A model generated the notes under the pieces. It had not been told where the DNA came from. It saw only the letters and a list, made by a program, of their open reading frames with translations, and ran no database searches. The translations under genes and the position numbers were made by a program. From NCBI GenBank assembly GCA_964387845.1, contig CAYLXA010000002.1, positions 64,001 through 128,000 on the forward strand: 64,000 nt of DNA, in the 5' to 3' direction. Position 1 is the first letter of the stretch, and each line of letters begins with the position of its first letter. Below, in pieces: positions 3,325 through 60,343 of this stretch. This DNA is from an uncultured bacterium (GTDB lineage Bacteria; Omnitrophota; Omnitrophia; Omnitrophales; Abzuiibacteriaceae).

Positions 3325-3410
3325 TCTTTGCTTGCTTTTGAAGCCGAATCCCGCTAAAATTACTCACTTTTACCTGAAACTCCGGTTAAATCCCATAAAA
3401 TACCAAGGTT

Positions 3411-31626: not shown

Positions 31627-32989
31627 TCATTTCTCAAATCGAGATGCGCTCATTATTAAAATTGCAACCATATTTGCGTTTGCCTGCATCATTGCGGGCT
31701 TTGTGCTGAACGAATGGGTTCTGGTAAGGCTGCTTAGTTCGGATGGAGCGCTGGAAGTTGGGACTAAATATCTGATTCGTGCATTTGATTTTTTTGCCAT
31801 CTGCCTTGGGATTTGGCTTTTGCGCAACAGGCACAATATGCAGCTCCATTTAAATTTGATTACATTTTTAGTCACTTTGTCTGTCATGATGCTGTTGGTT
31901 GAGGTTGGATTGCGAACAGAAAAGATCGTGAGAGCTCATAAGCAAGCAAACGAACTTCAAGCACATCCGGGGCCTTTTCAAGAAAATCCGAGCGGAGCTG
32001 GCTCTTACCGGATCCGTCCCAATTTATCCATGGTCCTTGGAGGAGGGGAAACTGTCCAAACCAATTCTTTTGGAATGAGATGGCGCGAGGTTTCTCCGGA
32101 TAATCCTCAAAAAAAGCAAAGAATCGCATTTGTGGGCGATTCTTTTACTTTTGGAATGGCGGCCTCAAGTGTTGAAAAAACTTTTGTAGGCGTATTTGAT
32201 TCGCTTATCGACCAATCGCGCTATGAAGTTTTGAATTTCGGTGTTCCCGGCTATGGTTTTCCGGATATGGAACTTGTGCTGCATGAAAAAGTGCTCCAAT
32301 TCAAACCCCGCTACGTCATTTTGATGTCGTACAACGGGAATGACTTCTCGGACACATTTTTCGGGCTGAATCGCTTCAAGATTAAAAACGGCTACCTGGG
32401 CCAGGGCCTTATTCAGGAGTGTGTGGATAAATTGCCAAAGCAGTACCGCACGCCGCCGCCGCAACAGTCTTTTCTGGAACGCATTGAGCTCCATAATCGC
32501 ATCGCGGGATTGATGGCGAAGGTTCACGAGCGATTTTTTTGGAATGCGCCGCCTCGCATTGATTTTTGGATTGATGATAATTTTATGGGGAGCAATGTTT
32601 TTTGGAGCCGGACCGATTACCCGCCGGTGGCGGTTGAGTCTAAAGACTTATCGTTGAAAACATTGGAGCGCATCAAAGCTTTTTGTGACAAGAATCAAAT
32701 CGAATTAATCATCATGACTATTCCTTTTAAGGAGCAGATTTATGCAATGTCCGAAAAGGGAGAGGGTTATGACATTCAATACCCGCAAAAATATATCGCA
32801 GATTTCGCAGACGGCCGAGAAATTCCTTTTTTTGACCTGCTCCCGCTCTTAAGGGCTGAACCGTTGGTTAAATCTAAAAATATATTTTCACCGGAAAGCC
32901 ACTTTAGCGATGAAGGCTACGAGTTGGTCGGCAAAATTATATTTGATCTTTTTCAAAGTGAAGTTTTGCGCAAACATGCAGACAACTGA
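31610..32989 (+). CDS. membrane-anchored SGNH/GDSL hydrolase family protein
   Basis: N-terminal TM helices, then block I 'VGDSFTFG', block III 'YNGNDF' and a C-terminal 'SPESHFSDEGY' block V-like region. Confidence 0.65.
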   Translation: MEKQVNHFSNRDALIIKIATIFAFACIIAGFVLNEWVLVRLLSSDGALEVGTKYLIRAFDFFAICLGIWLLRNRHNMQLHLNLITFLVTLSVMMLLVEVGLRTEKIVRAHKQANELQAHPGPFQENPSGAGSYRIRPNLSMVLGGGETVQTNSFGMRWREVSPDNPQKKQRIAFVGDSFTFGMAASSVEKTFVGVFDSLIDQSRYEVLNFGVPGYGFPDMELVLHEKVLQFKPRYVILMSYNGNDFSDTFFGLNRFKIKNGYLGQGLIQECVDKLPKQYRTPPPQQSFLERIELHNRIAGLMAKVHERFFWNAPPRIDFWIDDNFMGSNVFWSRTDYPPVAVESKDLSLKTLERIKAFCDKNQIELIIMTIPFKEQIYAMSEKGEGYDIQYPQKYIADFADGREIPFFDLLPLLRAEPLVKSKNIFSPESHFSDEGYELVGKIIFDLFQSEVLRKHADN

Positions 32990-34272
32990 TTTTAAAAGCA
33001 AGCTTCTTCTGTGGATTTTGTTACTACCGGCTTTGCTGCACGGCGTTCTAGCTGCCTATGCTGCTATCGTGAATGGTTACATGCCTTTCGGCCGATTTGA
33101 CTGCGTCATATACCTTCTTATTTTTGTGTATCTAACGGCCATTCTAATGTTGAGAAAAGACTTTGCGAAATTAACCAACCTCGCGTTGTTGATTTATTCC
33201 ATTTTAATTTCTATTTTAATTTTTGAGGCTGTGATCCGATTCGTTAAAAAAAGTGATTATTTACCGTGGGAGCCCATGCGCCGGGTGAGCGATGCGGCAC
33301 AGGGCGTTATGCCTGGCATCGAAGGTAAAATAGAGTTTTCGGTTAATCGGTATGGTGTCCGAGGCAGGGAGACAAGCTTGGATGAAGAAATTCGAATTTT
33401 GGTCATCGGCGGGAGTACGGCTGAATGTCTCTACGTGACCGATCATGCGAGTTGGCCATGGCAATTGGAAGAAAAATTAGCCCGCCGGACTGGCAAAAGT
33501 GTCTTTGTTGGAAACTCCGGAAAAGCAGGAGCTTTTACGGTTGATCATTTGCATCTCTTAAAAAATTATCATCATATCAATCAGTTCAAAACTATTTTAG
33601 TATTAAGTGGCGTCAATGATCTGGGCGCTTTTTTGAGAGGAACTTACGAGGAAAGAAAGCGCCAGGCAGCTGCCTCGGATTTTGTGCCGATTTATTATCA
33701 ACATCTTCGGCTATACAAAATTCTTAAGCGTGCACTTCCGTTAGATTTGAACAACCCCAATATCGCCTATCAGGATCCGGAAGGGTTGTGGTACGAAGAG
33801 GAAAGAAGAATTCGTAAAGCAGCAACCAAGCGAACATCGATTCCTAATGGATTTGAAGACGCCTTGACTGAGTATGGAATTAACTTAAGGGAAATGGTAA
33901 CGATCGCCAAAGCCAGGGGTCAGCAAATTATTTTTCTGACACAGCCTAGCATGTGGCAAGCAAGCATGGACCCCCTATTTAGAAAGTTTATTATGGGAGC
34001 ATACTTCAGACTCTAAAGCATACGATGCTAAAACCTTGGCGCAAATGATGGATGCTTACAATCAAGTCGTGCTGGAGATTTGTAAAACGGAAAACGTGCC
34101 ATGTATCGATATCGCTTCAAAGCTTCCAAAAGACACTCGAGTTTTTTATGATGATATTCATTTCAATATTTCAGGCTGTGCGATGGTTGCCGATTTGGTT
34201 GTCGCAGGCCTTATGAATCACTACGAAAAGCATCCGGAAATCTTTGAATCGCGCATGCCGATTAATCGATAA
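32976..34272 (+). pseudogene. second membrane-anchored SGNH hydrolase, a paralogue of the upstream gene, interrupted by a frameshift near 34000-34010 (or a sequencing error)
   Basis: ORF 32910-34016 carries block I 'ILVIGGSTAE' and block III 'SGVNDLG'. Block V 'YDDIHFNISGC' (DxxH) lies in the next ORF, 34036-34272, in the +1 frame. In that +1 frame the sequence is open back to 33940 and reads '…SDSKAYDAKTLAQMMDAYNQ…'. Confidence 0.45.
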
Positions 34273-34291: not shown

Positions 34292-35884
34292 ATGAGCAAC
34301 GAATCGAGCATTGATTTATTTGAATTTTATTTGCAGCGGTTTTTTATGATCGCGTATGCTCTTTTTATTTGCGTTCATTTTTATGTCATTGCTGCAAATC
34401 AATTCATAGGATCATCGGATTCCGCGATTTACGCATCAACCTTACGGAATTGGGTAGAGGGAAGGGGTTTTACGGTCGATTTTATCTCCCATTTTTTTAG
34501 AGCGTATCCTCAAATTAATCACGCGCAAGATCAATACCCCGTGTTTCCCGTTATTTTGTCCGCTCCGTTTTATATCTTGTTTGGAAAATCTGTTTTTGGA
34601 GCAAAGATTTTAAATCTGTTGTTCTACCACGGTATTTTATGGATTGGTTATTGGTTTTGGCTTAAGTGGTTTAACAAAAAAGTTGCGATTCTCTCGGCTT
34701 TGATCTACATGACCTGCGTCCCGGCTTGGCAATTATCGATTTACTGCATGGCTGATTTGGGGTCCTGCTTCTTCATTTTTTTATTCATTGCAACGCTCGT
34801 GAAATTGCGTGTTATGGAAGGTTTGCAGCGCTCTGATTTATTGACGCTTATTCTGTGCGGGCTGTTCGGTGGAATGGTTGTTTTATATAAAACAGTGAAC
34901 CATATCGTCTTGTTTGCACTCCTATCATTCGTTCTTTTCCAGCCTCACGGGAAACTGTCGGAACGATTTCGCGCAGTGTTTGCAATCGGCTTGATCGCAT
35001 TGTTGATCAACCTCCCGGATTACATTCGGAACTGGCAGCTTTTTGGCTCTCCAATTTTTTCTTACGCAAGCTCTATTGCAGTTGCTGAGAAAATGGATCC
35101 CGGGCCCAACGGCGCCTATCATATTTACTTTGATAAACCTTTATCGTTTCTGACCTTGATAACCGAATTCGGTTGGGCGCACCTCATAAAACTAACCTTG
35201 TATAATTTTGAACAGTTTTTTCTTGGTTTATTTATCAAAGGCAATTTATTGCATCCGCTGGTAATGATTGCAGGTATTTGGGGAATTGCGGCAGGGTGTT
35301 TGCGGGCGCGGCTCCGATGGCTGCTTGGGTGGTGGTTTTTTGTATTTGCGGTATTGATGTGTTTTGTGCAGAGTTATCAAGTTCGTTATTACGTTGCTTT
35401 TGCACCTTTTCTAGCCGGTGGCAGTGCTTATTTGATAGTTGAGCGAGTTCTGCCGGTATTTAAAAATATACGAGGCAAGTTGCTAGTGGTTGGAATTATC
35501 GGTATAATTTCTTCATTTTCATTAGTCTTGGGGATGCTTCCCGAGGTCTTTGGCGAAAAAAAGGCCGGGTTTCTGCGTTTGGCGAGCTGGATTGCGGCCA
35601 ACACTCCTCCGGAGGCAGTCTTGATTACAAGAAGCCCTTGGGAGGTTGGCTTTCACACAAAGCGCGGAACAGTGATTACCCCAAAAGGGAGTAAGAGAGA
35701 ATTTGATCAAATAATAGAAAGATATGGCGCTTCTTATTTTGTCATTGATGGGTACCGGGAGACTTATCATCAGATTCAAGATTTAAGACCGCTTTATTCC
35801 GGAGTTGAAATGCCTGGTTTTCAGAAAGTATTTGAGCAAAAGTGGCGTTCAAAGGAGGCCTATGTTTATAAAATCATCCATTAA
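34292..35884 (+). CDS. polytopic membrane protein, GT-C-like (PMT_2/ArnT-like family) candidate
   Basis: 530 aa. Many TM segments, a periplasmic-loop-sized region after TM1 and a ~90-aa soluble C-terminal domain. No catalytic motif is confidently identified. Confidence 0.4.
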   Translation: MSNESSIDLFEFYLQRFFMIAYALFICVHFYVIAANQFIGSSDSAIYASTLRNWVEGRGFTVDFISHFFRAYPQINHAQDQYPVFPVILSAPFYILFGKSVFGAKILNLLFYHGILWIGYWFWLKWFNKKVAILSALIYMTCVPAWQLSIYCMADLGSCFFIFLFIATLVKLRVMEGLQRSDLLTLILCGLFGGMVVLYKTVNHIVLFALLSFVLFQPHGKLSERFRAVFAIGLIALLINLPDYIRNWQLFGSPIFSYASSIAVAEKMDPGPNGAYHIYFDKPLSFLTLITEFGWAHLIKLTLYNFEQFFLGLFIKGNLLHPLVMIAGIWGIAAGCLRARLRWLLGWWFFVFAVLMCFVQSYQVRYYVAFAPFLAGGSAYLIVERVLPVFKNIRGKLLVVGIIGIISSFSLVLGMLPEVFGEKKAGFLRLASWIAANTPPEAVLITRSPWEVGFHTKRGTVITPKGSKREFDQIIERYGASYFVIDGYRETYHQIQDLRPLYSGVEMPGFQKVFEQKWRSKEAYVYKIIH

Positions 35885-36607: not shown

Positions 36608-38560
36608 ATGAATACACTTTTAATTCTTGATGATTTGGCGGAGCTTCTATCATCTAAAAATAAAACCATACAAAAGCTGCTTTCGGCGTACTTGCAGCAT
36701 TTGGCGCGTTCAGCCGATGGCGCGGCTGAGGAGTTGTTGCGTGACGGTGATACGGTTTTTGCGGCAGGTCCGCAGGAGGTTTTAAGCCGTGTCACAGGAC
36801 CTTGCGAAAAGCTGGATTACGGAATCTGGTTCGATACAATCCCGTTTGCGCGCGGCGGGGAGATTGCAGGAAAGATAGTGGAGCAGATTCGGGTTTCCGA
36901 AGAGCTTAAGTCGATCTGCCCGTTTCTGTATCGGAACACGATTTCAATTCCAAAAATCGCCGCGATGCGGCTGATCATTACATTCTGCTACCACGCGGTC
37001 AATAATTATCTTTTACTTGAAAGCATCATTCGAAAAAAGCAAATTCAGAAAATCGTGGTTTTGGGGTCTGGTGCTGAAATTGAAATTTTAGGAAAAGAAT
37101 TGTCAAAGAAGCATCGCTTACAGTTTCAAGTCATGCGCCCTCATGATGTAATTTTAAAATTAAAAGTTAGGTTTGCTGATTATCTTTTTTATCGAGACAG
37201 AAAACTTCATGCCCTTCAATCGTTTCAAAACTGCGACAGCTTGCCTAAGCAAGAAATCAAGAAGAGGAACCATAAAAAATTGATCGCCATGCTTCCGGCG
37301 CATTCCCTTCATTTTAAAATCATGGACTCGCTCATGGGCGCGCTTCGCCAATCGCGCAATTATGAGCCATGCGTGCTGCTTCAAGATGCTTTTGAGCCGT
37401 ATCAAGGGGCATTGAAAAATTCGGGAATAGCATTCCGATTTCTTCATGATTTTTCGAGCAGGGAACTTATGGGAAAATTTCAAAATTATTTTAAAAATCT
37501 CAAATCTGCTTGGAAGAAATTAAGAAATTCGGATACATTTAAATCTGCGTTTGACTGCGATGGGCTCAATTGGTTCGATATTCTGAGAGTCGAAATGGAG
37601 TGGTTTTTTAAATTCAGCTATGCTGAAACGCTGGTCTTGCAGGAGCGCTTACGAAAAGCGATGGCAGATGTGCCGATAGATTCCGTTTTTACTTTTAGCG
37701 ATTCACGGTTTTTTGAAGCGGGAGGTGCGGCAATTGCACGGGAGATGAAAAAGCCCTCGTTTTTATATTCTCCTAATTTTTTATACGATACAGACGGTAT
37801 TAACGACTACGATACGGCGGAATTTGTTTTGACCGTGGGCAATCAAATGAAAGATTATATTGCGGCGCGCGGCAAGGTGAATCCGAGTCAAATTTTCACC
37901 GTTGGCGATATCCGTTTTGACGGAAGCGAAAAATGGCGAAGCAGCGATCAGGCCGAGAAAACTCGTGTACAGCTTCAAATTCCATCGGACAAAAAGGTAT
38001 TTATTCTAACCTCGTTTTACACTTGCTTTGGCTATAATGCATACGACAAGAAACGCTTCTTTGAAATGATTCGAGATGCCGCCAAAGCCAATCCGGACGT
38101 TGCGATTGTGATCAAGGCACATCCGAACGAGAGCGAAGAAGTTCTGCGGCAATTTGTTAAAAGTTTGGGCATGAGTGATTTTCCGTTAACAAAAACAATG
38201 CCGCTTTATTCGCTGTTTGGAATATCCAGCGGGCTTATTTCGTTGACGTCTCTTGCGGCAGTCGAAGCCATGGCATTGGATTTACCGGTTATCATTGCGA
38301 CGCTGCCGGATCGAAATTACGATTACTATATCCCATTTCGCCAATCCGATTCGGCAGCGTATGCTGCAAGCGCCGAAGAGCTCTCCTTGATTTTTAGAAA
38401 ATTAATTGATGAATCGAACTACAAAAAAAATTTGTTGGAACGGCATCGACAATTTGTTTCGCGTTATGTGGACCGAGGCGGGCAGAGCGCCGGCCAACGG
38501 GTTATTCAGGTTCTAGATAAAATTGTGAATTCCGAACGTGAGAATTTGGGGCAGCTCTAA
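36608..38560 (+). CDS. two-domain protein: N-terminal domain of unknown function plus a C-terminal GT-B-like 'HP-motif' transferase domain (KpsS/TagF/sialyltransferase-like). Candidate nonulosonic acid transferase.
   Basis: The C-terminal ~250 aa contain '…KKVFILTSFYTCFG…' and 'VAIVIKAHPNESEE', followed by 'LISLTSLAAVEAMALDLPVI'. A K-x-HP motif of this kind is shared by PF05159/TagF/GT38/GT52 enzymes. The gene ends 5 nt before the CMP-NulO synthetase gene. Confidence 0.45.
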   Translation: MNTLLILDDLAELLSSKNKTIQKLLSAYLQHLARSADGAAEELLRDGDTVFAAGPQEVLSRVTGPCEKLDYGIWFDTIPFARGGEIAGKIVEQIRVSEELKSICPFLYRNTISIPKIAAMRLIITFCYHAVNNYLLLESIIRKKQIQKIVVLGSGAEIEILGKELSKKHRLQFQVMRPHDVILKLKVRFADYLFYRDRKLHALQSFQNCDSLPKQEIKKRNHKKLIAMLPAHSLHFKIMDSLMGALRQSRNYEPCVLLQDAFEPYQGALKNSGIAFRFLHDFSSRELMGKFQNYFKNLKSAWKKLRNSDTFKSAFDCDGLNWFDILRVEMEWFFKFSYAETLVLQERLRKAMADVPIDSVFTFSDSRFFEAGGAAIAREMKKPSFLYSPNFLYDTDGINDYDTAEFVLTVGNQMKDYIAARGKVNPSQIFTVGDIRFDGSEKWRSSDQAEKTRVQLQIPSDKKVFILTSFYTCFGYNAYDKKRFFEMIRDAAKANPDVAIVIKAHPNESEEVLRQFVKSLGMSDFPLTKTMPLYSLFGISSGLISLTSLAAVEAMALDLPVIIATLPDRNYDYYIPFRQSDSAAYAASAEELSLIFRKLIDESNYKKNLLERHRQFVSRYVDRGGQSAGQRVIQVLDKIVNSERENLGQL

Positions 38561-38564
38561 TCAC

Positions 38565-39281
38565 ATGGCAAAAAAAATATTACTAACCATTGCTGCCCGC
38601 GGCGGTTCAAAAGGTGTTAAGAATAAAAACATTCGAATGCTTCACGGAAAGCCGTTGATTGCCCACACAATTCATGCTGCGTTGAAATGGGGAAAGGCAG
38701 ATCGTGTAGTGGTCAGCACTGACTCGGCTGCAATTGCACGAGCAGCGCGGAAATATGGCGCTGAAGTCCCGTTCTTGCGGCCCGCTGCGTTTGCTCGGGA
38801 TTCTTCCCCAAAATGGCATGCATTAAAGCATGTATTGGAACAATCTGAGAAATTCTTCAACGAACGCTATGATTTGGTGATTGACCTGGATGTAACGGCG
38901 CCAATTCGCAGCGGGCAGGATATTGATGTGTGTCTTCAAAAGTTTTTACGCTTCAAACCCAAAACGCTTTTCAGCGTAACGCTCGCCCATAAGAATCCGT
39001 ATTTTAATATGGTGGAAGAAACAAAAAATGGTCGCGTGCGGGTCTCAAAGAAGTTGAGGACAAGCATTGTCCGGCGTCAGGATGCGCCCAAGGTTTACGC
39101 AATCAATGGTTCGATTTATGTTTATTCGCGTAATTACCTGCTCAAGTCTAAAAATCCTATTGCGACGAGCGATGATTCAATTATTCACGTGATGGATGAA
39201 CTAAGCGGTATCGACATAGACCGTGAAATCGATTTCAAATTCGTTGAATTCTTAATTCGCGAAGGCATGGTAAAGTTTTGA
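38565..39281 (+). CDS. acylneuraminate cytidylyltransferase family (CMP-nonulosonic acid synthetase, LegF/NeuA/PseF-like)
   Basis: 'ILLTIAARGGSKGVKNKNIRMLHGKPLIAHTI' is the hallmark N-terminus of CMP-NeuAc/CMP-Leg synthetases. 239 aa. Confidence 0.85.
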   Translation: MAKKILLTIAARGGSKGVKNKNIRMLHGKPLIAHTIHAALKWGKADRVVVSTDSAAIARAARKYGAEVPFLRPAAFARDSSPKWHALKHVLEQSEKFFNERYDLVIDLDVTAPIRSGQDIDVCLQKFLRFKPKTLFSVTLAHKNPYFNMVEETKNGRVRVSKKLRTSIVRRQDAPKVYAINGSIYVYSRNYLLKSKNPIATSDDSIIHVMDELSGIDIDREIDFKFVEFLIREGMVKF

Positions 39282-40150
39282 AAACCACTCGCATTATTCC
39301 TCGCCTCGATATTAAAGGCCCTAACCTGGTGAAGGGAATTCACCTTGAGGGCTTACGTGTTCTTGGTAAGCCTGAAAAATTTGCTCGCTATTACTACGAA
39401 ACAGGTGCTGACGAACTTCTCTACATGGATGTTGTTGCTAGTCTGTATGGGCGAAATAGTTTGCTCGATATTATTTCCAAAACTTCAAAAGAGATTTTTA
39501 TTCCGTTAACGGTTGGCGGCGGCCTCAGATCTTTGGTTGATATGCAGGCTGTTCTTCATGCGGGTGCTGATAAGGTCGCGATCAATACTGCCGCAACGCA
39601 AAACCCGGAGATTATTCGCGAAGCCTCTAAACGCTTCGGATCTTCAACCATTGTCGTCTCGATTGAGGCCATTAAGCAACCCGACGGCACTTATCATGCT
39701 TTCATCGACAACGGACGTCAGGAAACCGGCTTGGATGTGTTCGATTGGGTTCAAAAAGTTGTCGAGTTGGGTGCTGGTGAAATTTTGCTGACCTCTGTCA
39801 ATCAAGAGGGAACGGGAAAGGGTTACGATCTTGACCTCATCAAAAAAGTTTCCGAAATGATTCCGATTCCCGTGATTGCTTGCGGCGGAGCGAAAAATAA
39901 ATCCGATGTGGCGAAAGTAATTATGGAAGGATGTGCGGATGCTGTGAGCGCTGCATCGATCTTTCATTATCATTATATTCGTGAAAACAGGTCAACCTCA
40001 GATTTTGAAACCGAAGGCAACGTTGAATTCTTAAAAAGCGGCAAGGGATTCAGCCAGTTTGACACAGTGACAGTTCGCGATGTTAAAAAGCATTTAACAG
40101 ATTTAGGGATCGAATGTCGTTATGAAAAAGGTTTGGTGGAACATGGCTAA
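39278..40150 (+). CDS. imidazole glycerol phosphate synthase cyclase subunit HisF paralogue (WbuZ-like, glycan amidotransfer)
   Basis: 'IIPRLDIKG…VKG' and a (beta/alpha)8 HisF signature 'ILLTSVNQEGTGKGYD'. Located in a glycan locus, not in a his operon. Confidence 0.8.
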   Translation: MKTTRIIPRLDIKGPNLVKGIHLEGLRVLGKPEKFARYYYETGADELLYMDVVASLYGRNSLLDIISKTSKEIFIPLTVGGGLRSLVDMQAVLHAGADKVAINTAATQNPEIIREASKRFGSSTIVVSIEAIKQPDGTYHAFIDNGRQETGLDVFDWVQKVVELGAGEILLTSVNQEGTGKGYDLDLIKKVSEMIPIPVIACGGAKNKSDVAKVIMEGCADAVSAASIFHYHYIRENRSTSDFETEGNVEFLKSGKGFSQFDTVTVRDVKKHLTDLGIECRYEKGLVEHG

Positions 40151-40817
40151 ATCCAAACCGCGAGTCGCTATTGTCAATTACGGCATGGGAAATCTGTTCA
40201 GCGTGCAGCAAACCTGTGCTCATGTTGGCCTTGAAGCCGTGGTTACAAACCAAAAAAGGGATCTCCAAACGGCTGACGGAATCATTTTGCCTGGCGTTGG
40301 GGCATTTGGAGATGCTATGGACAACCTAAACCGTTTAGATATTACAGAAACCCTCCAGAAGGCCATTTTATCTGAAAAAAAGCCTTTTCTAGGGGTCTGC
40401 CTGGGCCTGCAATTACTTATGGAGGAAAGTGAGGAATTTGGGTATCATAGAGGCCTTGGTGTAGTCAAGGGGAAGGTAATTCGCTTTGGCGATCAGATAA
40501 AGGGCAGGGATGGCAGGGCAGCGAAAGTCCCTCAAGTCGGTTGGAATCAGATATATCCTACGCCAAGCGGAAGTGAATGGAGCCAGTCGCTTTTGTCCGG
40601 AGTTTCAGAGGGCGATTTCATGTATTTTGTGCATTCATACCACATTGAGCCAGAAGATAGAGGCGTTCGTTTGTCAATGACGCGCTATGGTAATTTTGAA
40701 TTTTGCTCCAGTGTACAGAAGGGAAATATCTTTGGCTGTCAGTTTCATCCGGAACGAAGCGGTGCCAAGGGCGTTACGGTTTACCAAAATTTTTTGAAAT
40801 TATTTTCTAAATCTTAG
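40143..40817 (+). CDS. glutamine amidotransferase HisH paralogue (WbuY-like)
   Basis: Class I GATase triad context 'GVCLGLQLL' (Cys) and 'FHPE' (His/Glu). ATG 40143 overlaps the hisF-like stop (ATGGCTAA). Confidence 0.8.
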   Translation: MAKSKPRVAIVNYGMGNLFSVQQTCAHVGLEAVVTNQKRDLQTADGIILPGVGAFGDAMDNLNRLDITETLQKAILSEKKPFLGVCLGLQLLMEESEEFGYHRGLGVVKGKVIRFGDQIKGRDGRAAKVPQVGWNQIYPTPSGSEWSQSLLSGVSEGDFMYFVHSYHIEPEDRGVRLSMTRYGNFEFCSSVQKGNIFGCQFHPERSGAKGVTVYQNFLKLFSKS

Positions 40818-42499: not shown

Positions 42500-43723
42500 A
42501 TGACGCAATCTGAAACTCAAAATAAATTTAAAACCAAGTACGGTTTGCCGTCAGAAGTAATTTTCTGCAAGCGTTGCGTCATGTCAAACCAGCGGCCCGC
42601 TTCAAGTAAAGAATTCAAGCATACCAAATCTCAAAAACACACAACGCTTAATATTCCAAACGATGGTATCTGCGATGCGTGCCGTTACGCGGATAAAAAA
42701 GAAGAAATCAATTGGAAAAGCCGAGAAGCCGAACTTTTGAAACTGCTCGACCGCCACCGCAAAACGGACGGAACTTACGATTGCATTGTTCCTGGAAGCG
42801 GCGGAAAAGACAGTGTTTATGCAGCGCACTTGCTCAAATACAAATACGGTATGCATCCTTTGACGGTCACTTGGCCGCCAATTCTTTACACCGATATTGG
42901 TTACGCGAATTTTAGAAATTGGCTCTACAAAGGCGGTTTCGATAACATTTCGTTTAATTACAACGCCAAAGTTCATGCACTATTAACAAGACTCGCCATC
43001 GAAAACCTTCTTCATCCTTTTCAACCTTTTATTCTTGGACAAAAAAACCTCGCGCCCAAGCTCGCTTTAAAATATGAAGTGCCTTTGATTTTCTACGGTG
43101 AAAGTGAAGCAGAATATGGAAATCCGCTTGCAGAGACCGCAACCTCGCTCCGCGATAAATCTTATTTCACGATGGAAAATCTTTCCGATATTCATTTGGG
43201 CGGCGTAAGCGTGAAAGAACTTCAGGAAAAATACAAACTCACAATCAACGACATTATGACTTATTTGCCGCCGACGGCATCCGAGGTCGCCAAAATGAAT
43301 ATGGAAGTTCATTACCTTGGTTATTATTTAAAATGGACACCGCAGGAAGCCTATTATTACTCGGTTGAAAATGTGGGTTTTCAGGCAAATCCATTCCGCA
43401 CCGAAGGCACTTACAGCAAATACAACAGTTTGGATGATAAAATAGACGGCTTCCACTATTACACCACTTTCATTAAATTTGGCTTAGGTCGCGCAAGTTA
43501 CGATGCATCACAAGAAATTCGCAACAAACATTTGACGCGGGAAGAAGGTATAGCGCTTGTCCGCAAGTTTGACGGGGAGTTTCCTCAAAAATATTTTCAG
43601 GAAATCATGGACTATATCGGCATGAAGCCCGATCATTTTCTGGATCTTTGCGACCAATTCCGGTCTCCGCATTTATGGAAAAAAGAAAATGGGAAGTGGA
43701 TCTTGCGCTATCCGGTCAATTAA
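42500..43723 (+). CDS. N-acetyl sugar amidotransferase (WbuX/PseA family, PP-loop ATP pyrophosphatase)
   Basis: PP-loop 'IVPGSGGKDSVYAAHLL'. About 400 aa, as in WbuX/PseA. Adjacent HisH/HisF paralogues complete the known acetimidoyl-forming trio. Confidence 0.8.
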   Translation: MTQSETQNKFKTKYGLPSEVIFCKRCVMSNQRPASSKEFKHTKSQKHTTLNIPNDGICDACRYADKKEEINWKSREAELLKLLDRHRKTDGTYDCIVPGSGGKDSVYAAHLLKYKYGMHPLTVTWPPILYTDIGYANFRNWLYKGGFDNISFNYNAKVHALLTRLAIENLLHPFQPFILGQKNLAPKLALKYEVPLIFYGESEAEYGNPLAETATSLRDKSYFTMENLSDIHLGGVSVKELQEKYKLTINDIMTYLPPTASEVAKMNMEVHYLGYYLKWTPQEAYYYSVENVGFQANPFRTEGTYSKYNSLDDKIDGFHYYTTFIKFGLGRASYDASQEIRNKHLTREEGIALVRKFDGEFPQKYFQEIMDYIGMKPDHFLDLCDQFRSPHLWKKENGKWILRYPVN

Positions 43724-47368: not shown

Positions 47369-48379
47369 ATGAATCTTAAAGGCAAAAGAGTTCTGGTTAC
47401 CGGAGCCGATGGTTTTATCGGTTCTCATTTGACCGAAGCGCTGGTGAGGCGTGGATGTAACGTACGCGCGTTCGTATTTTACAATTCGTTCAATTCATGG
47501 GGCTGGCTGGATGAGTCGCCAAAGGATATCAGAAAGTCTTTGGACGTGGTTGCTGGAGATGTCCGCGATCCGCACGGTGTCCGAGAAGCCGTAAAGGGAT
47601 GTGACGTTGTCATGCACCTGGCAGCGCTTATTTCAATTCCGTTTTCGTATCATTCGCCGGATGCTTTTGTTGATACAAACATAAAGGGGACTCTCAACGT
47701 GTTGCAGGCATCTCGAGATTCAAAAGTAAGCAAAATTATTCATACCTCCACGAGCGAAGTTTACGGAACCGCGCAGTTTGTGCCCATTACGGAAGAGCAC
47801 CCATTGCAGGGCCAATCACCCTATTCGGCCTCAAAAATTGGGGCTGATCAGATGGCTACGGCTTTTCACTCAGCGTTCCAAACACCGGTTTGTATTTTTC
47901 GGCCGTTCAATACATATGGTCCAAGGCAGTCAGCGCGCGCGGTTATTCCTTCTATTATTATTCAAATCGCAACGGGAAAGAGTGAGATCAAGCTTGGATC
48001 TGTCCATCCAACTCGAGATTTTACCTATGTATCCGACACGGTCGAAGGTTTTATCAAAGCCGCGGAATCAGAAAAGTCGGTTGGCGAGGTGATTAACGGG
48101 GGTAGTAATTTTGAGATCTCAATTTCGGATACCGTAAAATTGATTAGCAAAATCTTAAACCGAAAAATTGCGGTCATAAGCGATAATCAAAGAATTCGCC
48201 CGAAAGCAAGCGAGGTGGAGCGATTGTGGGCTGACAATAAGAAGGCAAAAAAACTACTTAACTGGAAGCCTGCGCATAGCGGTTTAGAAGGTTTTGAAAA
48301 GGGGCTAAGAAAAACCGTGGACTGGATCTCGCAAGCGGATATTTTAAAGCGATACAAAGAAGAGATTTATAACATTTAA
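47369..48379 (+). CDS. NAD-dependent nucleotide-sugar 4,6-dehydratase/epimerase (LegB-like candidate)
   Basis: 'VLVTGADGFIGSHLTEAL' Rossmann fold, plus TSE and YxxxK ('YSASKIGADQ'). It is the first gene of the Leg-type sub-cluster. Confidence 0.7.
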   Translation: MNLKGKRVLVTGADGFIGSHLTEALVRRGCNVRAFVFYNSFNSWGWLDESPKDIRKSLDVVAGDVRDPHGVREAVKGCDVVMHLAALISIPFSYHSPDAFVDTNIKGTLNVLQASRDSKVSKIIHTSTSEVYGTAQFVPITEEHPLQGQSPYSASKIGADQMATAFHSAFQTPVCIFRPFNTYGPRQSARAVIPSIIIQIATGKSEIKLGSVHPTRDFTYVSDTVEGFIKAAESEKSVGEVINGGSNFEISISDTVKLISKILNRKIAVISDNQRIRPKASEVERLWADNKKAKKLLNWKPAHSGLEGFEKGLRKTVDWISQADILKRYKEEIYNI

Positions 48380-48381
48380 CA

Positions 48382-49557
48382 ATGAAGCGAATAAAATCCA
48401 ACATAGACGCCACAAGTGTTCTGAAGGCTGTTAGGAAGTGCTTGCCCGGGGACAGTCGCCCCATCCAACTTCACGAGCCCTGGTTTGCCGGCAACGAGCA
48501 GAAGTATGTCAGTGCGTGCATTAAGAGCGGGATTGTTTCATCGATCGGGCCTTATGTTGAACAGTTTGAGAAACAATTGATCCGATTGACAGGCTCAAAA
48601 TTTGCAATTGCCACGATCAACGGAACAGCTGGGCTTCATACGGCACTCCGAATGGCCGGAGTAGAGGCAAATGATGAGGTTTTAGTGCCGTCATTGTCAT
48701 TCGTTGCAACATCAAATGCGATCGCGTATTGCGGCGCTATTCCTCATTTTATTGACAGTGAGATGCGGGCGCTTGGCGTTGATCCGCACAAGCTTCAGGA
48801 TTATTTGGTAAAAATATCCAAACGGCGAAATAGCGGCTTCATCAATAAAACAACAGGCCGGAGAATAAGAGCGGCGGTTGTGGTGCATACATTCGGCCAC
48901 CCGGCGGATCTTGACGCTATCCAGGCAGTTTGCAAAAAATTTAAACTTCCACTAATTGAAGATGCTGCAGAATCGATCGGATCCTATTACAAAGGGAAGC
49001 ACACCGGTACAATCGGAGACTTTGGTGTTTTAAGCTTTAACGGCAACAAAACAATCACGTCAGGCGGCGGAGGCGCGATTTTAGTACAGAATCAAAAACT
49101 GGCAAAACATCTCCGGCACATTACAACCACCGCTAAAATACCTCATGCTTGGCGTTATTATCATGATGAAATCGGATATAATTATCGGCTTCCCAATCTA
49201 AACGCTGCGCTTGGCTGTGCGCAATTGGAGTCGCTGCCGATGTTTATCAAGCGCAAACGGGCCTTAGCCAAACGTTACGAGAAGGCTTTCTCCCATATTA
49301 ATGGAGTTAGTTTTATTAAGGAACCTCCTTTTGCAAAAAGCAACTACTGGCTAAATGCTGTCAGGCTGGAAGGTGTTGGATTGCGGGAAAGAGATCGGTT
49401 TTTAACGCTTATGCACACGCACAACATTAAAACAAGGCCGGTGTGGACACTGACGCATCGTCTTCCTATGTATCGAAATTGCCCGCGAATGGATATGTCC
49501 GTATCAGAGAAAATTGAAAAAGAAACTATTAACCTGCCCAGCAGCCCAGCGTTATGA
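48382..49557 (+). CDS. DegT/DnrJ/EryC1/StrS-family PLP-dependent sugar aminotransferase (LegC/PglE-like)
   Basis: 'LHEPWFAGNEQKYVSACIKSG' N-terminus. PLP-lysine region 'SFNGNKTITSGGGGAIL'. Confidence 0.85.
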   Translation: MKRIKSNIDATSVLKAVRKCLPGDSRPIQLHEPWFAGNEQKYVSACIKSGIVSSIGPYVEQFEKQLIRLTGSKFAIATINGTAGLHTALRMAGVEANDEVLVPSLSFVATSNAIAYCGAIPHFIDSEMRALGVDPHKLQDYLVKISKRRNSGFINKTTGRRIRAAVVVHTFGHPADLDAIQAVCKKFKLPLIEDAAESIGSYYKGKHTGTIGDFGVLSFNGNKTITSGGGGAILVQNQKLAKHLRHITTTAKIPHAWRYYHDEIGYNYRLPNLNAALGCAQLESLPMFIKRKRALAKRYEKAFSHINGVSFIKEPPFAKSNYWLNAVRLEGVGLRERDRFLTLMHTHNIKTRPVWTLTHRLPMYRNCPRMDMSVSEKIEKETINLPSSPAL

Positions 49558-51737
49558 AGCGAAGAATTTGTGTAGTTACTAGTTCGCGCGCCGATTTTGG
49601 TCATCTGCAGTGGGTCATGACCTATCTGAAAAAAGATCCGAGAGTTCGCTTGCAAGTTGTGGTGACCGGCTCACACTTATCTCGCGCGCATGGAACCACC
49701 TTGCGCGAAATTCAGGACGCGGGAATTTCTGAATCTGCTCGGATTCCAATCATTGCAAAAGGGGATTCTGTTGTTGCGATAACGCAAGCGGCTGGAATGG
49801 CATTGAGCAGATTTGCAAAGGTCTTTGACAGGCTCAAACCCGAATTGCTGCTGGTTGTGGGAGATCGTTATGAAATTCATTCGGCCGTAACGGCGGCGCT
49901 TCTCGCTAAAATTCCGGTTGCACATATTGCCGGTGGCGACATTACGGAAGGGGCATTCGATGACGCGTTGCGGCACAGTATCACCAAAATGGCTCATTTG
50001 CACTTTGTGACAAATGCCGTGTCGGCGAAACGAATTCGGCACATGGGAGAAAACCCTTCGCATATTTTTAACGTTGGAAATCCTGCGCTTGACCATGTAA
50101 CGAAATCAAAATTATTCACTAAAAACGAAATTGAGGAGAAGCTTGCTTTCAAAATGCGCTCACGCAATATCTTGATTACGTTTCATCCGGTTACGCTGGA
50201 CACCGAACCATCTGACCGGCAATTTAAACAGTTGCTGAGCTCGCTGAATCGGTTGGGAGACGAATATGGCCTTATTTTTACTAGGCCCAACGCGGATCCG
50301 GCAGGACAAAAGATATCTAAATTGATCGATCATTTTGTCAAAACGCATTCAAACGCTATTGTAAAAGCCTCGCTAGGTCATTTGTTATACTTAAGCATCA
50401 TGAATGAAGTTGATTTGGTTGTCGGAAATTCATCAAGCGGGATTTATGAGGCGCCAACATTTAAAATTCCCACAGTTAACATCGGAAACCGGCAAAAAGG
50501 CCGCTTGCGAGCGGCTTCTGTGATTGATTGCGCGCCGAGCAGGGCGGCAATTAGCCGAGCAATTCGGTCAGCTCTAGCAAAGGATTGCTCGCAGGTTGAA
50601 AATCCTTACGGACGGGGAAATAGTTCCGAGCAAATTTATAAGATTATTCGCTCTGTCCAGAACCCAAAAACACTAATTCAAAAGAAATTTTATGATGCCG
50701 GCGTGCCCACTAAAACTGGGCCGGTTTATGTGATCGCCGAAGCGGGGGTGAATCATGGCGGCTCGCTGAAACTTGCAAAAAAACTGATCGACGCAGCTTC
50801 GCAAGCCGGCGCTAATGCGGTCAAGTTTCAAACTTTTGATTCGGATATGCTGGTAACGCGACAAGCTAAAAAAGCAAAATACCAGCAAGACACAACCGGC
50901 AAAAATGGGTCTCAATATGAAATGCTCAAAAAATTAGAACTCAGCCAGAAAGATCATTTTGCGCTGAAAGCTCACTGCAAAAAAAGAAAAATTGATTTTT
51001 TATCGACCCCTTTTGATTTAAAAAGCCTTGATTTCTTAATCAACAATCTGCAGGTCCGGAAAATTAAAATATCTTCAGGCGATATTACCAACGGGCCGCT
51101 ACTGTTGAAAGCTGCGGAATCAAAACTTCCGATTATTTTATCAACCGGAATGTCAACGCTTGACGAAATTGAAGCTGCCGTAAGATTGATCGAGAAAGGA
51201 TATCGATCCAGCGCCTCTCTTTTAAAATCAAACTTAAAACTGCTTCATTGTACAAGCGAATATCCGGCCTCATTTTCTGATATGAATTTGTTATCGATCG
51301 ATTTTTTAAGAAATTATTTTCAATTGGATGCCGGGCTGTCAGATCATTCGAGCGGGATAGCAGCTGCAATTGCAGCCGTAGGGCGCGGCGCATCCATTAT
51401 TGAAAAACACATTACTTTGAATAAAAGCATGGCAGGCCCCGATCACCGCGCATCGCTTGATCCGAATGAGTTTCGAGAACTGGTTCGATCAATTCGCCAA
51501 GTCGAAGAAGCTATGGGATCCTACGTAAAAAGGCCGGCAGCGTCAGAATTAAAAAACCGAAGCGCAGCCAGAAAGAGCATCGTCGCTTCCAAGCCGATTA
51601 AACGCGGAGAAAGGCTGACCCGTCACAATCTGGCGCTGAAGCGTCCCGGTGTCGGGATCAGCCCCATGAATCTTTCGGAAGTCATAGGACGACTATCAAC
51701 CAAAAATTATAAAAAAGACGATATCATTGTTATCTAA
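49554..51737 (+). CDS. fused hydrolysing UDP/GDP-HexNAc 2-epimerase (NeuC/LegG-like, N-terminal half) and nonulosonic acid synthase (NeuB/LegI-like, C-terminal half)
   Basis: Residues 1-~375 read 'VVTSSRADFGHL…VVGDRYEIHSA…HIAGGD…RHSITKMAHLHF', which align with E. coli NeuC. Residues ~385-727 read 'VYVIAEAGVNHGGSLKLAKKLIDAASQAGANAVKFQTF', the NeuB TIM barrel, and end in a C-terminal SAF domain. Confidence 0.85.
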   Translation: MKRRICVVTSSRADFGHLQWVMTYLKKDPRVRLQVVVTGSHLSRAHGTTLREIQDAGISESARIPIIAKGDSVVAITQAAGMALSRFAKVFDRLKPELLLVVGDRYEIHSAVTAALLAKIPVAHIAGGDITEGAFDDALRHSITKMAHLHFVTNAVSAKRIRHMGENPSHIFNVGNPALDHVTKSKLFTKNEIEEKLAFKMRSRNILITFHPVTLDTEPSDRQFKQLLSSLNRLGDEYGLIFTRPNADPAGQKISKLIDHFVKTHSNAIVKASLGHLLYLSIMNEVDLVVGNSSSGIYEAPTFKIPTVNIGNRQKGRLRAASVIDCAPSRAAISRAIRSALAKDCSQVENPYGRGNSSEQIYKIIRSVQNPKTLIQKKFYDAGVPTKTGPVYVIAEAGVNHGGSLKLAKKLIDAASQAGANAVKFQTFDSDMLVTRQAKKAKYQQDTTGKNGSQYEMLKKLELSQKDHFALKAHCKKRKIDFLSTPFDLKSLDFLINNLQVRKIKISSGDITNGPLLLKAAESKLPIILSTGMSTLDEIEAAVRLIEKGYRSSASLLKSNLKLLHCTSEYPASFSDMNLLSIDFLRNYFQLDAGLSDHSSGIAAAIAAVGRGASIIEKHITLNKSMAGPDHRASLDPNEFRELVRSIRQVEEAMGSYVKRPAASELKNRSAARKSIVASKPIKRGERLTRHNLALKRPGVGISPMNLSEVIGRLSTKNYKKDDIIVI

Positions 51738-51746
51738 AGACGCGTC

Positions 51747-52340
51747 ATGAGAGAAGAGATTGATAAACCCATTATTGTGATTGGGGCTGGAGGGCATGCC
51801 AAAGTCCTGATCGACGCACTGCGGTTAATGGGATGCCAGGTGTTGGGCGCAACCGAAAAAAAACCGGAAATAATTGATCAGGCAAAACTTCCGGTGAAGC
51901 TTTTGGGAAACGACGATGAAATATTAAAGCATTCACCCGACAGCATACTGCTCGTTAACGGTGTAGGCCAAGTTGGGGTAGGGCCAAGTCGCTCTCAGAT
52001 ATTTGATAGATATAAATCAAAAGGCTATCGGTTTGCAATCATCCAACATCCCCGAGCCGTTGTCGCGGCTGATGTTGAATTGCATGAGGGCGCACAAATT
52101 ATGGCTGGTGCAATCATTCAAACTGCTTCCAAAATTGGCTGTAACACCATTGTGAATACAGGCGCATCGATTGACCATGATTGCCAAATTGAAAGCCATG
52201 TCCATATTGCGCCTGGAGCCATTTTGTGCGGGATGGTTGAAGTGGGAGAGGGATCTCATATTGGCGTTGGTGCTATTCTCATTAACAATACAAAAGTGCC
52301 GCGAAACAGTTTTATTAAGTCCGGTACTCTGGTGAAGTAA
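51747..52340 (+). CDS. hexapeptide-repeat sugar N-acetyltransferase (NeuD/PglD/LegH family)
   Basis: 'IIVIGAGGHAKVLIDAL' Rossmann-like N-domain followed by a left-handed beta-helix. Confidence 0.8.
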   Translation: MREEIDKPIIVIGAGGHAKVLIDALRLMGCQVLGATEKKPEIIDQAKLPVKLLGNDDEILKHSPDSILLVNGVGQVGVGPSRSQIFDRYKSKGYRFAIIQHPRAVVAADVELHEGAQIMAGAIIQTASKIGCNTIVNTGASIDHDCQIESHVHIAPGAILCGMVEVGEGSHIGVGAILINNTKVPRNSFIKSGTLVK

Positions 52341-52350
52341 GGAGTTTGTT

Positions 52351-53397
52351 ATGGAAATTTGGAAAAAAACGCTCGTATCAAAGTTAACGCCGATCAAAGA
52401 AGTGATTAAAGTAATCGATGCGGGATCTTTGCAAATTGCTTTGGTCGTTGATGAAAATTATAAGCTTTTAGGAACCGTTACCGACGGTGATGTTCGCCGC
52501 GGCATTTTAAAAAACATATCCATGAATGATCCCGTGCACAAAATTATGCAGTCGAAACCAGTCATTGCAAAACTGGGCGAGGAGCGAGAAAAAGTTTTGG
52601 TACGCATGAAAGAAAAGCAGATCAATCAAATTCCATATCTTGATCAAGCGGGGCGTGTCAAAGGACTTGAAGTTATCCATGATTTGCTTAACGGATCCGC
52701 AAAAGATAATCCTGTATTATTGATGGTGGGCGGCCTGGGAAGCCGGCTGCAACCAATCACAAACGATCTTCCGAAGCCGCTCATTAAAGTCGGTGGCAAG
52801 CCGATTTTGGAACGCATTTTAGAGGATTTGATTGAATACGGCTTCCGGAAGTTTTACTTTTCCGTATTTTATAAATCCGAAATGATTCAAGAATATTTCG
52901 GTGATGGCAGCCGCTGGGATGTGGAAATTCGGTATATTCGCGAGCAAAAGAGAATGGGCACTGCCGGCGCCTTGAGCCTTCTTCCTGAAAAGCCTTCGGC
53001 ACCAATTTTAATTATGAACGGAGATTTGGTTACAAAAGTTAATTTTCAGCATCTTTTTGATTTTCATCAGCAGCAATCCGGCGATTTGACCGTGTGCGTC
53101 CGTGAGTATGATTTTCAAGTGCCTTACGGCGTTATTAAAATGAACGGTCATCTTATTTCAGGCATCGACGAAAAACCGGTGCATAAGTTTTTTGTAAACG
53201 CCGGAATTTATTTGATGGAGCCTGCGCTTTTGCGAAACATATCCAAAAACCGTTTTTTAGACATGACCCAGCTGATTGAAAAATTGAAGTCCAAAAAGAA
53301 AATTCTCGCATTTCCGATCCGTGAATATTGGCTCGATATCGGCCGGCACGACGACTTAAAGCGTGCAACCGAAGAAATCGAGTCGTTGTTTAAATAA
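52351..53397 (+). CDS. CBS-pair plus sugar-phosphate nucleotidyltransferase (PtmE-like, GDP-HexNAc forming candidate)
   Basis: Two N-terminal CBS motifs. Then 'LMVGGLGSRLQPITNDLPKPLIKVGGKPILERIL', the G-x-G-T/S-R-L NTase signature. Confidence 0.8.
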   Translation: MEIWKKTLVSKLTPIKEVIKVIDAGSLQIALVVDENYKLLGTVTDGDVRRGILKNISMNDPVHKIMQSKPVIAKLGEEREKVLVRMKEKQINQIPYLDQAGRVKGLEVIHDLLNGSAKDNPVLLMVGGLGSRLQPITNDLPKPLIKVGGKPILERILEDLIEYGFRKFYFSVFYKSEMIQEYFGDGSRWDVEIRYIREQKRMGTAGALSLLPEKPSAPILIMNGDLVTKVNFQHLFDFHQQQSGDLTVCVREYDFQVPYGVIKMNGHLISGIDEKPVHKFFVNAGIYLMEPALLRNISKNRFLDMTQLIEKLKSKKKILAFPIREYWLDIGRHDDLKRATEEIESLFK

Positions 53398-59793: not shown

Positions 59794-60343
59794 TTTTCAA
59801 AATGTTGTCTTCGTTGACCGCGACGGCGTCATTAATTATGACAATCTTGCCGGTTACATTACGCAATGGAAATATTTTAAGTTCATTCCGGGGTCGCTCA
59901 AGGCTCTCGCTCAGTTAACGAAAGCAGGGTTCAAGATCGTGATCATCTCCAACCAAGCCGGAATCGGTGACGGTGTTTACCCTAAAAAAGCACTGATCGA
60001 TATCACGTGGAGAATGAAACGCAAGATGAAGCAATCGGGAGTTGAAGTCGTTGGAATTTATTACTGTTTACATGGCAAAAAAGCCGGCTGCAAATGCCGC
60101 AAACCCGAAACCGGGCTTTTCAAAAAAGCCGCGCGGGATTTTCGTTTTAACAAAAAGAAAACTTATTTTATCGGTGATAAAATTTCTGATTTATTGGCAG
60201 GAAAGCGTTTTGGTCTGCGGACCGGTTTTGTGTTAACCGGTCACGGAAAACATGAAGCTCCGAAAATTCCCGTGCGCCTCAAACCGGATGTTCGCGGCGC
60301 TAATTTACTCCAGTTAACCCGCCGTTTATTGAAATCTTTATGA
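59750..60343 (+). CDS. gmhB: D-glycero-D-manno-heptose 1,7-bisphosphate phosphatase
   Basis: HAD motif I 'VVFVDRDGVIN', Zn-binding 'CLHGKKAGCKCRKPETG' and motif III 'IGDKISD'. Confidence 0.75.
   Translation: MPNTGSQSKTKRPNNFQNVVFVDRDGVINYDNLAGYITQWKYFKFIPGSLKALAQLTKAGFKIVIISNQAGIGDGVYPKKALIDITWRMKRKMKQSGVEVVGIYYCLHGKKAGCKCRKPETGLFKKAARDFRFNKKKTYFIGDKISDLLAGKRFGLRTGFVLTGHGKHEAPKIPVRLKPDVRGANLLQLTRRLLKSL

Follow-up and report, generated by a model that had tools for sequence, protein, structure and literature searches.

Knowledge of the enzymes that attach legionaminic acid (Leg) and pseudaminic acid (Pse) has been called scarce (PMC5420450, PMC7439481). Non-flagellar transferases for these sugars are barely known; among those named in the literature are the Tannerella candidates and KpsS1, besides the flagellin enzymes Maf and FlmG. 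Glycosyltransferases (GT) of the GT-B type that carry an HP motif and transfer nonulosonic acids (NulOs) are an already known kind of enzyme. We have analysed a 64-kb stretch of DNA from an uncultured bacterium of the Omnitrophales (contig CAYLXA010000002.1, positions 64,001 to 128,000; hereafter the window), which encodes a 650-amino-acid (aa) protein directly upstream of a gene for a cytidine monophosphate (CMP)-NulO synthetase. From its sequence and context, this protein is probably a cytoplasmic CMP-Leg-dependent glycosyltransferase of an uncharacterised family with three Rossmann domains; we infer its activity, acceptor and stereochemistry.

Among the described systems, the Tannerella proteins Tanf_01245 and TFUB4_00887, putative transferases for derivatives of Pse and Leg, respectively, resemble the window protein in being of the HP-motif GT-B type and in being encoded beside CMP-NulO genes. 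TFUB4_00887 of T. forsythia UB4 and BFO_1060 of strain 92A2 are identical proteins (PMC5420450). The O-glycan of T. forsythia lost its Leg derivative on knock-out of TFUB4_00887, and the Tanf_01245 and TFUB4_00887 knock-outs lack the terminal NulO (PMC5420450). The Tannerella proteins are TagB-like, 442-445 aa long, with two domains and HP, D/E-D/E-G and DXD motifs (PMC5420450), whereas the window protein has 650 aa and three Rossmann domains and is devoid of D/E-D/E-G. KpsS1 (GT118), the retaining Pse transferase of A. baumannii, has been described as related to KpsS (PMC12887879). KpsS1 and KpsS/KpsC (GT107; Pfam PF05159) likewise take CMP-activated ulosonic or nonulosonic acids as donors, as we presume for the window protein.

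The gene, its domains and motifs, and the adjoining synthetase gene are located in the window as follows.
36608..38560, + strand: 650-aa gene, a three-Rossmann GT-B-like candidate CMP-Leg-derivative glycosyltransferase (open reading frame (ORF) with ATG start and TAA stop at 38558-38560)
36608..37252, + strand: domain 1, residues 1-215, GT-B N-terminal Rossmann half in a diverged second copy, by profile comparison
37265..37942, + strand: domain 2, residues 220-445, GT-B N-terminal (acceptor-side) Rossmann half in the model
37943..38557, + strand: domain 3, residues 446-650, GT-B C-terminal nucleotide-binding Rossmann half in the model
37700..37702, + strand: D365 in the FSDSRFFE motif after strand N-beta4, candidate catalytic base
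37904..37921, + strand: G433-D-I-R-F-D438, inter-domain motif
38114..38131, + strand: K503-A-H505-P506-N-E508, the HP motif, predicted contact to the donor CMP phosphate
38249..38266, + strand: S548-L-A-A-V-E553, start of a C-terminal helix, predicted phosphate and ribose contacts
38565..39281, + strand: CMP-NulO synthetase (LegF/NeuA/PseF-like), maker of the presumed donor (CTP_transf_3, E 2.9e-19; PseF, 131 bits)

Translation of the ORF 36608..38560 reproduced all three motif strings quoted in an earlier, sequence-only reading of this DNA, namely KKVFILTSFY (residues 462-471, 37991-38020), IVIKAHPNESEE (residues 500-511, with KAHPNE at 38114-38131) and SLAAVEAMALDLPVI (residues 548-562). The same reading took the next gene for a CMP-NulO synthetase behind a 5-nucleotide (nt) spacer. 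The assignment stands: the protein belongs to the NeuA/PseF/KdsB superfamily, and PseF is its top NCBIfam match, under the equivalog cutoff. The spacer needs correction to 4 nt (TCAC, 38561-38564), counted to the ATG at 38565, which is the likeliest start and the one used in the public gene call; an alternative GTG start at 38538 would overlap the 650-aa ORF.

The family to which the 650-aa protein belongs is visible only by exhaustive hidden Markov model (HMM) search. Such a search, covering 1.84 billion cluster representatives, returned 2525 relatives at E≤1e-3, 799 at E≤1e-10 and 61 at E≤1e-30, and 116 of the best 150 matches have a length of 570-700 aa. Word-indexed search of 5.8 billion proteins identified two relatives only (41% and 38% identity), and remained limited to two when a 75-sequence profile was used. 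Nothing significant was found by sequence search of the PDB, none of ten family cluster entries that were looked up carried a name, and the family was not found in literature searches. No Pfam or NCBIfam model covers this three-Rossmann family above its cutoff.

Conservation was counted in an alignment of 117 family representatives with 15-41% identity to the window protein. Invariant positions are G433, H505 and S548; G411, K503, P506, E553, P560 and R631 are conserved in at least 90% of the sequences. The HP motif of the C-terminal half is beyond chance at this divergence, with H505 in 117/117, P506 in 116/117 (99%), K503 in 113/117 (97%) and Glu or Asp at position 508 in 112/117. Every representative inspected contains (I/V)(I/V)-K-x-H-P-(N/T)-E, and H505-P506 is the sole HP in the window protein. 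Loss of this motif on alignment had been named beforehand as an argument against a transferase of this kind; the HP pair is kept throughout the family at the frequencies given. In the second motif, S548 is followed by an acidic residue at position 553 in all 117 sequences (Glu in 92%). Position 365 is the top-conserved polar site of the acceptor half (Asp in 85/117, Glu in 22/117; together 91%) and aligns in hhalign with the Asp of the NeuC GDR motif. The inter-domain motif has the family consensus TGxPRxD, with Asp or Glu at position 438 in 105/117. Motifs of this latter kind are also carried by the epimerase and TagF families. A GT1-like His-Asp dyad formed by D365 with H232 or H235 was considered and dropped, as neither His is conserved (15/117 and 42/117, respectively). 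The sequence-only reading had proposed a check for the sialyltransferase motif D/E-D/E-G, which proved negative: [DE][DE]G occurs nowhere in the window protein, is present in no alignment column in more than 20% of the 117 sequences, and was seen in domain 2 of 3/117 relatives.

Modelling with AlphaFold2 from a 75-sequence alignment gave a mean predicted local distance difference test (pLDDT) score of 94.5 and a predicted template modelling (pTM) score of 0.92. Residues ~220-650 form a GT-B fold in the model and the secondary-structure map, with two facing Rossmann-like halves, of which the C-terminal one is the nucleotide side. The proposal of a GT-B nucleotide-binding half with a conserved K-x-HP is borne out by model and alignment. 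No transmembrane helix was found in the 650-aa protein; the lone hydrophobic window (544-564) corresponds to a core strand plus helix in the model. In the fold comparison, the model scored highest with UDP-N-acetylglucosamine (UDP-GlcNAc) 2-epimerase (1v4v, 17.8) and NeuC (5zlr, 17.4), followed by MGD1 (15.6), MurG (14.8), TarL (14.8), TagF (14.5), the CMP-Kdo-binding domain of WaaA (14.3), Bcs3 (13.1) and polysialyltransferase (5wc6, 12.7). Foldseek ordered the structural relatives in the same way, and generic GT-B matches also include PimA, WaaB and BshA. The kinship with GT38/GT52 sialyltransferases or KpsC/KpsS that had been proposed was not recovered, the nearest folds being UDP-GlcNAc 2-epimerases, MurG and TagF/TarL. 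On the model, the fold is GT-B, and no transferase family stands out.

The N-terminal part, which the sequence-only reading regarded as a novel domain, has a different explanation: residues ~220-445 are an ordinary GT-B acceptor half, and residues 1-215 repeat its strand/helix order. Profiles of the three domains, taken from the family alignment, were compared with hhalign. Domain 1 matched domain 2 with a probability of 99.7% and E 1.4e-25 over 194 columns in global mode, with E 2e-24 in local mode, and with E 1.4e-27 after removal of the window's close subfamily. The control with reversed domain 2 gave E 0.03, and domain 3 gave E 0.63 against domain 1 and E 0.31 against domain 2. The four closest sequences alone produced a weak signal between domains 1 and 2 (E 0.0014), which indicates that the duplicate has diverged most in the window's subfamily. 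By these profile matches, the acceptor-side half occurs a second time, in degenerate form, as residues 1-215, which are no new fold. The equivalent of D365 in domain 1 is S154 in the window protein and D, N, G, K or S across the family, with no conserved residue; that the acidic residue is not kept suggests a non-catalytic module.

The genomic linkage to the CMP-NulO synthetase was followed in relatives. A contig search with a 13-sequence alignment identified 10 loci, all from metagenome-assembled genomes (MAGs); a contig profile search with a 3-sequence profile gave no match. All full-length relatives with at least 5 kb of flanking sequence lie close to a CMP-NulO synthetase gene. Altogether, in 11 further independent loci (L005, L001, L008, L026, L010/L014, L011, L013, L015, L023, L024 and L025), among them MAGs of Omnitrophica, Anaerolineae and Rokuibacteriota, the synthetase gene is no more than 10 kb from a full-length relative, and NeuB or other Leg genes are usually also present. 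Ten of these loci are arranged as follows; L026 is described below.
P0001 (L005): synthetase adjacent, then HisH, HisF and WbuX
P0002 (L001): synthetase one gene off, then NeuB
P0003 (L008): synthetase one gene off, then HisF, HisH and WbuX (81% identical to that of the window)
P0009 (L010; also in the Anaerolineae MAG L014): synthetase one gene off, then NeuB
P0013 (L011): PMT_2, NeuB, then synthetase
Omnitrophica MAG (L013): synthetase and NeuB both no more than 6 kb off
Rokuibacteriota MAG (L015): upstream, synthetase and NeuD; downstream, NeuB, NeuC, PtmE-like, LegB and LegC
P0014 (L023): synthetase within 10 kb
P0020 (L024): synthetase within 10 kb, with a second paralogue starting directly after the synthetase
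P0027 (L025): synthetase within 10 kb

In P0004 (L026 8001-10685), a continuous 894-aa ORF, a three-domain family protein is fused to CTP_transf_3. It is 34% identical to the window protein, the match spanning its first ~645 residues, and the CTP_transf_3 domain occupies residues 649-817 (E 4e-30). As read from its 69-kb contig, the only contig with this arrangement, P0004 joins in one gene what in the window are two abutting genes; the same locus also has a separate cytidylyltransferase gene and two NeuB genes. The link of the 650-aa gene to the CMP-NulO synthetase, on which the sequence-only reading relied, is therefore kept in distant relatives, even as a gene fusion. The neighbour pattern recurs in two Nitrosarchaeum loci, whose matches are partial. 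No synthetase was seen in four loci matched by the C-terminal half only (L016, L017, L019 and L022), and these matches probably belong to other GT-B families.

A single NulO locus, L024, contains two family paralogues, at 2796-4784 (662 aa) and 10001-11983 (660 aa). The first of them directly follows a cytidylyltransferase gene and is itself followed by an Epimerase_2 (NeuC-like) gene. Two other proteins, the 548-aa membrane protein of the window and a 639-aa protein of L010, were tested as possible paralogues of the 650-aa protein; both are unrelated.

Gene direction in the window is nearly uniform from about 15.2 to 62.2 kb. Pfam or NCBIfam scans covered 45 window ORFs of at least 150 aa, among them all of those in the co-directional segments 15203-59793 and 60340-61455; the eight ORFs outside the scans comprise six from the housekeeping stretch ahead of 12.8 kb and two short ones (59750-60343 and 61452-62165). 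The following genes of the Leg pathway and its modification and export were identified.
39278-40150 and 40122-40817, + strand: HisF-like and HisH-like proteins (His_biosynth, E 2.5e-63; GATase, E 1e-19)
40826: TylF-type O-methyltransferase, by family scan
41560: 2-oxoglutarate (2OG)-Fe oxygenase, by family scan
42500..43723, + strand: WbuX/PtmG-type N-acetyl sugar amidotransferase (TIGR03573, 347 bits, cutoff 203)
43748-45547: PglK/MsbA-type ATP-binding cassette (ABC) half-transporter, by NCBIfam
47369..53397, + strand: Leg pathway with LegB, LegC, NeuC-NeuB (LegG-LegI), NeuD/LegH-type and PtmE-like genes
47369: LegB (TIGR04180, 522 bits, over cutoff)
48382: LegC (TIGR04181, 524 bits, over cutoff)
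49554-51737, + strand: NeuC-NeuB fusion (LegG-LegI-like), one 727-aa ORF (TIGR03568, 434 bits, and TIGR03569, 461 bits, both over cutoff)
51747: NeuD/LegH-type acetyltransferase (TIGR03570, 181 bits, over cutoff)
52351: protein with CBS and nucleotidyltransferase domains (PtmE-like), by family scan
56396: Wzy_C ligase, by family scan
57513: WcaJ-type phosphoglycosyltransferase, by family scan

Judged by these genes, the locus makes CMP-legionaminic acid, and more GT2 and GT4 genes flank it on both sides. The HisF-like/HisH-like pair and WbuX are predicted to form an acetamidino group on the NulO. PtmG, a homologue of WbuX, turns CMP-Leg5Ac7Ac into CMP-Leg5Am7Ac (PMC3766260); by this homology, the donor here is probably CMP-Leg5Am7Ac. 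The TylF-type O-methyltransferase, the 2OG-Fe oxygenase and several other nearby methyltransferases suggest that the sugar or glycan is modified further. As the sequence-only reading had stated for the island, no GT29/42/52/80 or Maf gene was found: neither the 650-aa protein nor any of the 45 scanned ORFs matched these families. Its central proposal, a candidate NulO transferase, holds in so far as the 650-aa gene is the sole plausible candidate found in a complete Leg locus and its linkage is kept; the function itself is still inferred.

Between the GT4 gene and the 650-aa gene lies a block of further genes, listed here with the two genes preceding it.
28853-30499, + strand: 548-aa polytopic membrane protein, ~10 hydrophobic segments, no Pfam/NCBIfam match
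30478: GT4, by family scan
31610-32989 and 32910-34016, + strand: two SGNH/GDSL-like proteins with N-terminal hydrophobic segments
34292-35884, + strand: PMT_2-like GT-C membrane protein, 530 aa, sub-threshold Pfam match, at least 8 hydrophobic segments
35906: methyltransferase, by family scan

The adjacent SGNH/GDSL-like proteins may act on the glycan as O-acyl transferases or esterases. With the PMT_2-like gene and the 35906 methyltransferase gene, their genes make up the block, which is missing in L005; L008 has just two methyltransferase genes at this place. The PMT_2-like gene is two genes upstream of the 650-aa gene, and a PMT_2 gene also adjoins the distant homologue P0013 (L011 2461-4023). 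Homologues of the 548-aa protein precede a GT4 gene and are upstream of the 650-aa homologue in L005 (33% identity) and, twice, in L008 (43% and 33%). This protein may act in the same pathway, either as a polymerase or as a GT-C-like membrane enzyme.

In three distant loci, a Wzx-type flippase gene (Polysacc_synt) abuts the start of the 650-aa homologue (L010 6472-8004, L023 8493-10004 and L025 8538-9998), with a 4-nt overlap in L010 and L023 and a 2-nt gap in L025. Compared with the ABC half-transporter of the window, this indicates that the transferase family occurs with different export routes.

One further feature of the 650-aa gene is a homopolymer.
38423..38430, + strand: A8 run, codons Y-K-K-N; the window has 14 runs of exactly this length

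The sequence-only reading had placed this run at 38421-38428 and mentioned it as a potential slippage site. It has no special status among the 14 such runs in the window, where longer runs are absent, and phase variation at this site was rejected, with no supporting evidence found. Another of the 14, also an A8 (38570-38577), covers codons 2-5 of the cytidylyltransferase gene (MAKKI...). Outside the island, a deoxyhypusine synthase-like gene (3411-4532, + strand) is located in the housekeeping stretch beside miaA, hflX and rpoN; its NCBIfam matches are sub-threshold, and it also resembles homospermidine and 1,9-bis(guanidino)-5-aza-nonane synthases.

Known families were matched by the window protein in its C-terminal region. 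Pfam gave marginal matches, to Capsule_synth (22.1 bits, cutoff 20) and Epimerase_2 (21.4 bits, cutoff 30.6), in the C-terminal third only. TIGR04396 ('surface carbohydrate biosynthesis protein') reached 52 bits (cutoff 125; residues 482-645 against model positions 208-368 of 427), NF046086 (the BFO_1060 family) 37.7 bits (cutoff 200; E 1.2e-9; residues 476-638 against 199-362 of 365), and TIGR04326 a sub-threshold 25.3 bits in the same region. Among 75 relatives, TIGR04396 was matched by 72 at E≤0.001 (best E 9e-33) and NF046086 by 71 (best E 2e-36); the next-best models were wecB (3e-16), Glyphos_transf (1.3e-15), Capsule_synth (8e-9) and TarB (1.4e-8). By profile score, then, TIGR04396 and the BFO_1060 family (NF046086) are the nearest curated families, and the window protein, with both scores below cutoff, is a member of neither. 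The HP-motif sialyltransferases (GT38, GT52 Lst and GT80 PmST1) differ from the window protein, which lacks D/E-D/E-G and has no Pfam match to them; they rank structurally under epimerases, MurG and TagF, and PF07388 was matched by 1/75 relatives.

Several points weigh against a CMP-Leg-dependent transferase. The scores with BFO_1060 and TIGR04396 are far under the cutoffs and concern the nucleotide-binding half only, which holds little information on the donor. Among solved structures, UDP-GlcNAc 2-epimerases and not sialyltransferases come closest, and the D/E-D/E-G motif is absent from the window protein and the family. SpsB of B. subtilis, an HP-motif TagB-like protein encoded in a Leg locus, is dispensable for Leg transfer (PMC7439481), so that locus position plus HP motif can mislead. 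Moreover, the window has many GT4 and GT2 genes, any of which could in principle use a CMP-sugar. We know of no GT4 or GT2 enzyme that uses a CMP-nonulosonate.

Some of these points fit an enzyme that uses an ordinary nucleoside diphosphate (NDP)-sugar, for example by adding the residue that later receives the NulO, with Leg being transferred by another enzyme (GT4, GT2 or a membrane protein). Generic GT-B fold matches (MurG, MGD1, PimA, WaaB and BshA), the Glycos_transf_1 matches in 32/75 relatives and the SpsB precedent are compatible with such a role. However, the linkage is specific to the cytidylyltransferase, including the fusion, and not to NDP-sugar genes, and K-x-HP and the nearest curated family favour donors activated by CMP or cytidine diphosphate (CDP); we consider an NDP-sugar enzyme unlikely. 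The structural ranking would also fit a nucleotide-sugar-modifying protein of the UDP-GlcNAc 2-epimerase/NeuC type (PF02350), or a non-catalytic relative of it, in NulO precursor synthesis. The 'GGD' and 'D..RH' stretches of NeuC are catalytic. In the hhalign comparison, the residues of the family opposite these acidic and His motifs are unconserved, and only the Asp of GDR meets a conserved residue (D365). The Epimerase_2 score is below the gathering cutoff, the extra, duplicated domain of 215 residues has no counterpart in epimerases, and the window already encodes a bona fide NeuC (434 bits), all of which makes an epimerase role highly improbable.

A TagF/TarL-like CDP-alcohol phosphotransferase (PF04464), adding glycerol- or ribitol-phosphate to the glycan, would share with the window protein one half of its active-site pair. 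Enzymes of this type require two invariant His residues (H444/H584 in TagF, H300/H433 in TarL; PMC10901376), and the C-half residue has a counterpart in the invariant H505. The N-half residue has none, H235 and H232 being kept in 42/117 and 15/117; what is conserved in that half is D/E365. TagF-type polymerases also have an extra N-terminal domain, which in TarL is Ig-like (PMC10901376) and in the window protein a Rossmann duplicate. Glyphos_transf was weakly matched by 50/75 relatives and not at all by the window protein at E≤0.1. The scanned ORFs include no TagD/TarI/TarJ-type gene, their sole cytidylyltransferase being the CTP_transf_3 protein of NeuA/PseF type, and LptD and RpoN, encoded in the window, mark the organism as a diderm bacterium. 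A confident TagF/TarL assignment with teichoic partners had been set out as what would overturn the proposal; the fold gives no confident assignment of that kind, and no such partners are found in the scanned ORFs. We give this alternative only a very slim chance, and no better one to a transferase for another CMP-ulosonic acid (Kdo, Kdn or another NulO) acting in the manner of KpsS/KpsC/KpsS1. The latter would account for the Capsule_synth (PF05159) match just over its cutoff, for the matches to the same model in 45/75 relatives, and for several relatives located beside short NeuB genes or cytidylyltransferases fused to haloacid dehalogenase (HAD) domains, possibly serving other ulosonic acids; the genes of the window itself are those of the Leg pathway.

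If the 650-aa protein is the CMP-Leg-dependent transferase that we favour, a soluble or peripheral cytoplasmic enzyme would take a CMP-Leg derivative, possibly further methylated, from the products of the neighbouring genes and bind it in its C-terminal half. Phosphate contacts would come from K503, H505 and S548 and the ribose contact from E553, as in cytidine-nucleotide GT-B enzymes, and D365 would act as the base that activates the acceptor hydroxyl. The acceptor may be an undecaprenyl-diphosphate-linked oligosaccharide at the cytoplasmic face, built by the phosphoglycosyltransferase and the GT2/GT4 enzymes. The NulO would be added before export through the PglK/MsbA-type ABC transporter (the Wzx flippase in L010, L023 and L025), and the exported unit would then be ligated by the Wzy_C-type protein. 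Domain 1 would be non-catalytic and might position or oligomerise the enzyme, or bind acceptor or membrane, by analogy with TagF-like polymerases.

We put forward more tentatively the wider proposal that the proteins of ~620-660 aa constitute an unrecognised and phylogenetically wide GT family for NulOs of the Leg/Pse type, with a new GT-B architecture. If so, that architecture would consist of a complete GT-B preceded by a second, degenerate acceptor half in tandem. The duplicated acceptor half is a structural oddity and raises the question of the role of a third Rossmann domain in a GT-B enzyme; the front copy might be a module for oligomerisation, membrane positioning or chain length, and polymerisation to poly-NulO is a conceivable activity of the enzyme. 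The family would then supply the 'missing' non-flagellar Leg transferases and add biocatalysts for the synthesis of Leg glycosides. As a family of thousands of cluster representatives that is consistently tied to CMP-NulO synthetases, it would give a handle on environmental mimics of sialic acid, and the display of such mimics by environmental bacteria, and possibly archaea, would become tractable.

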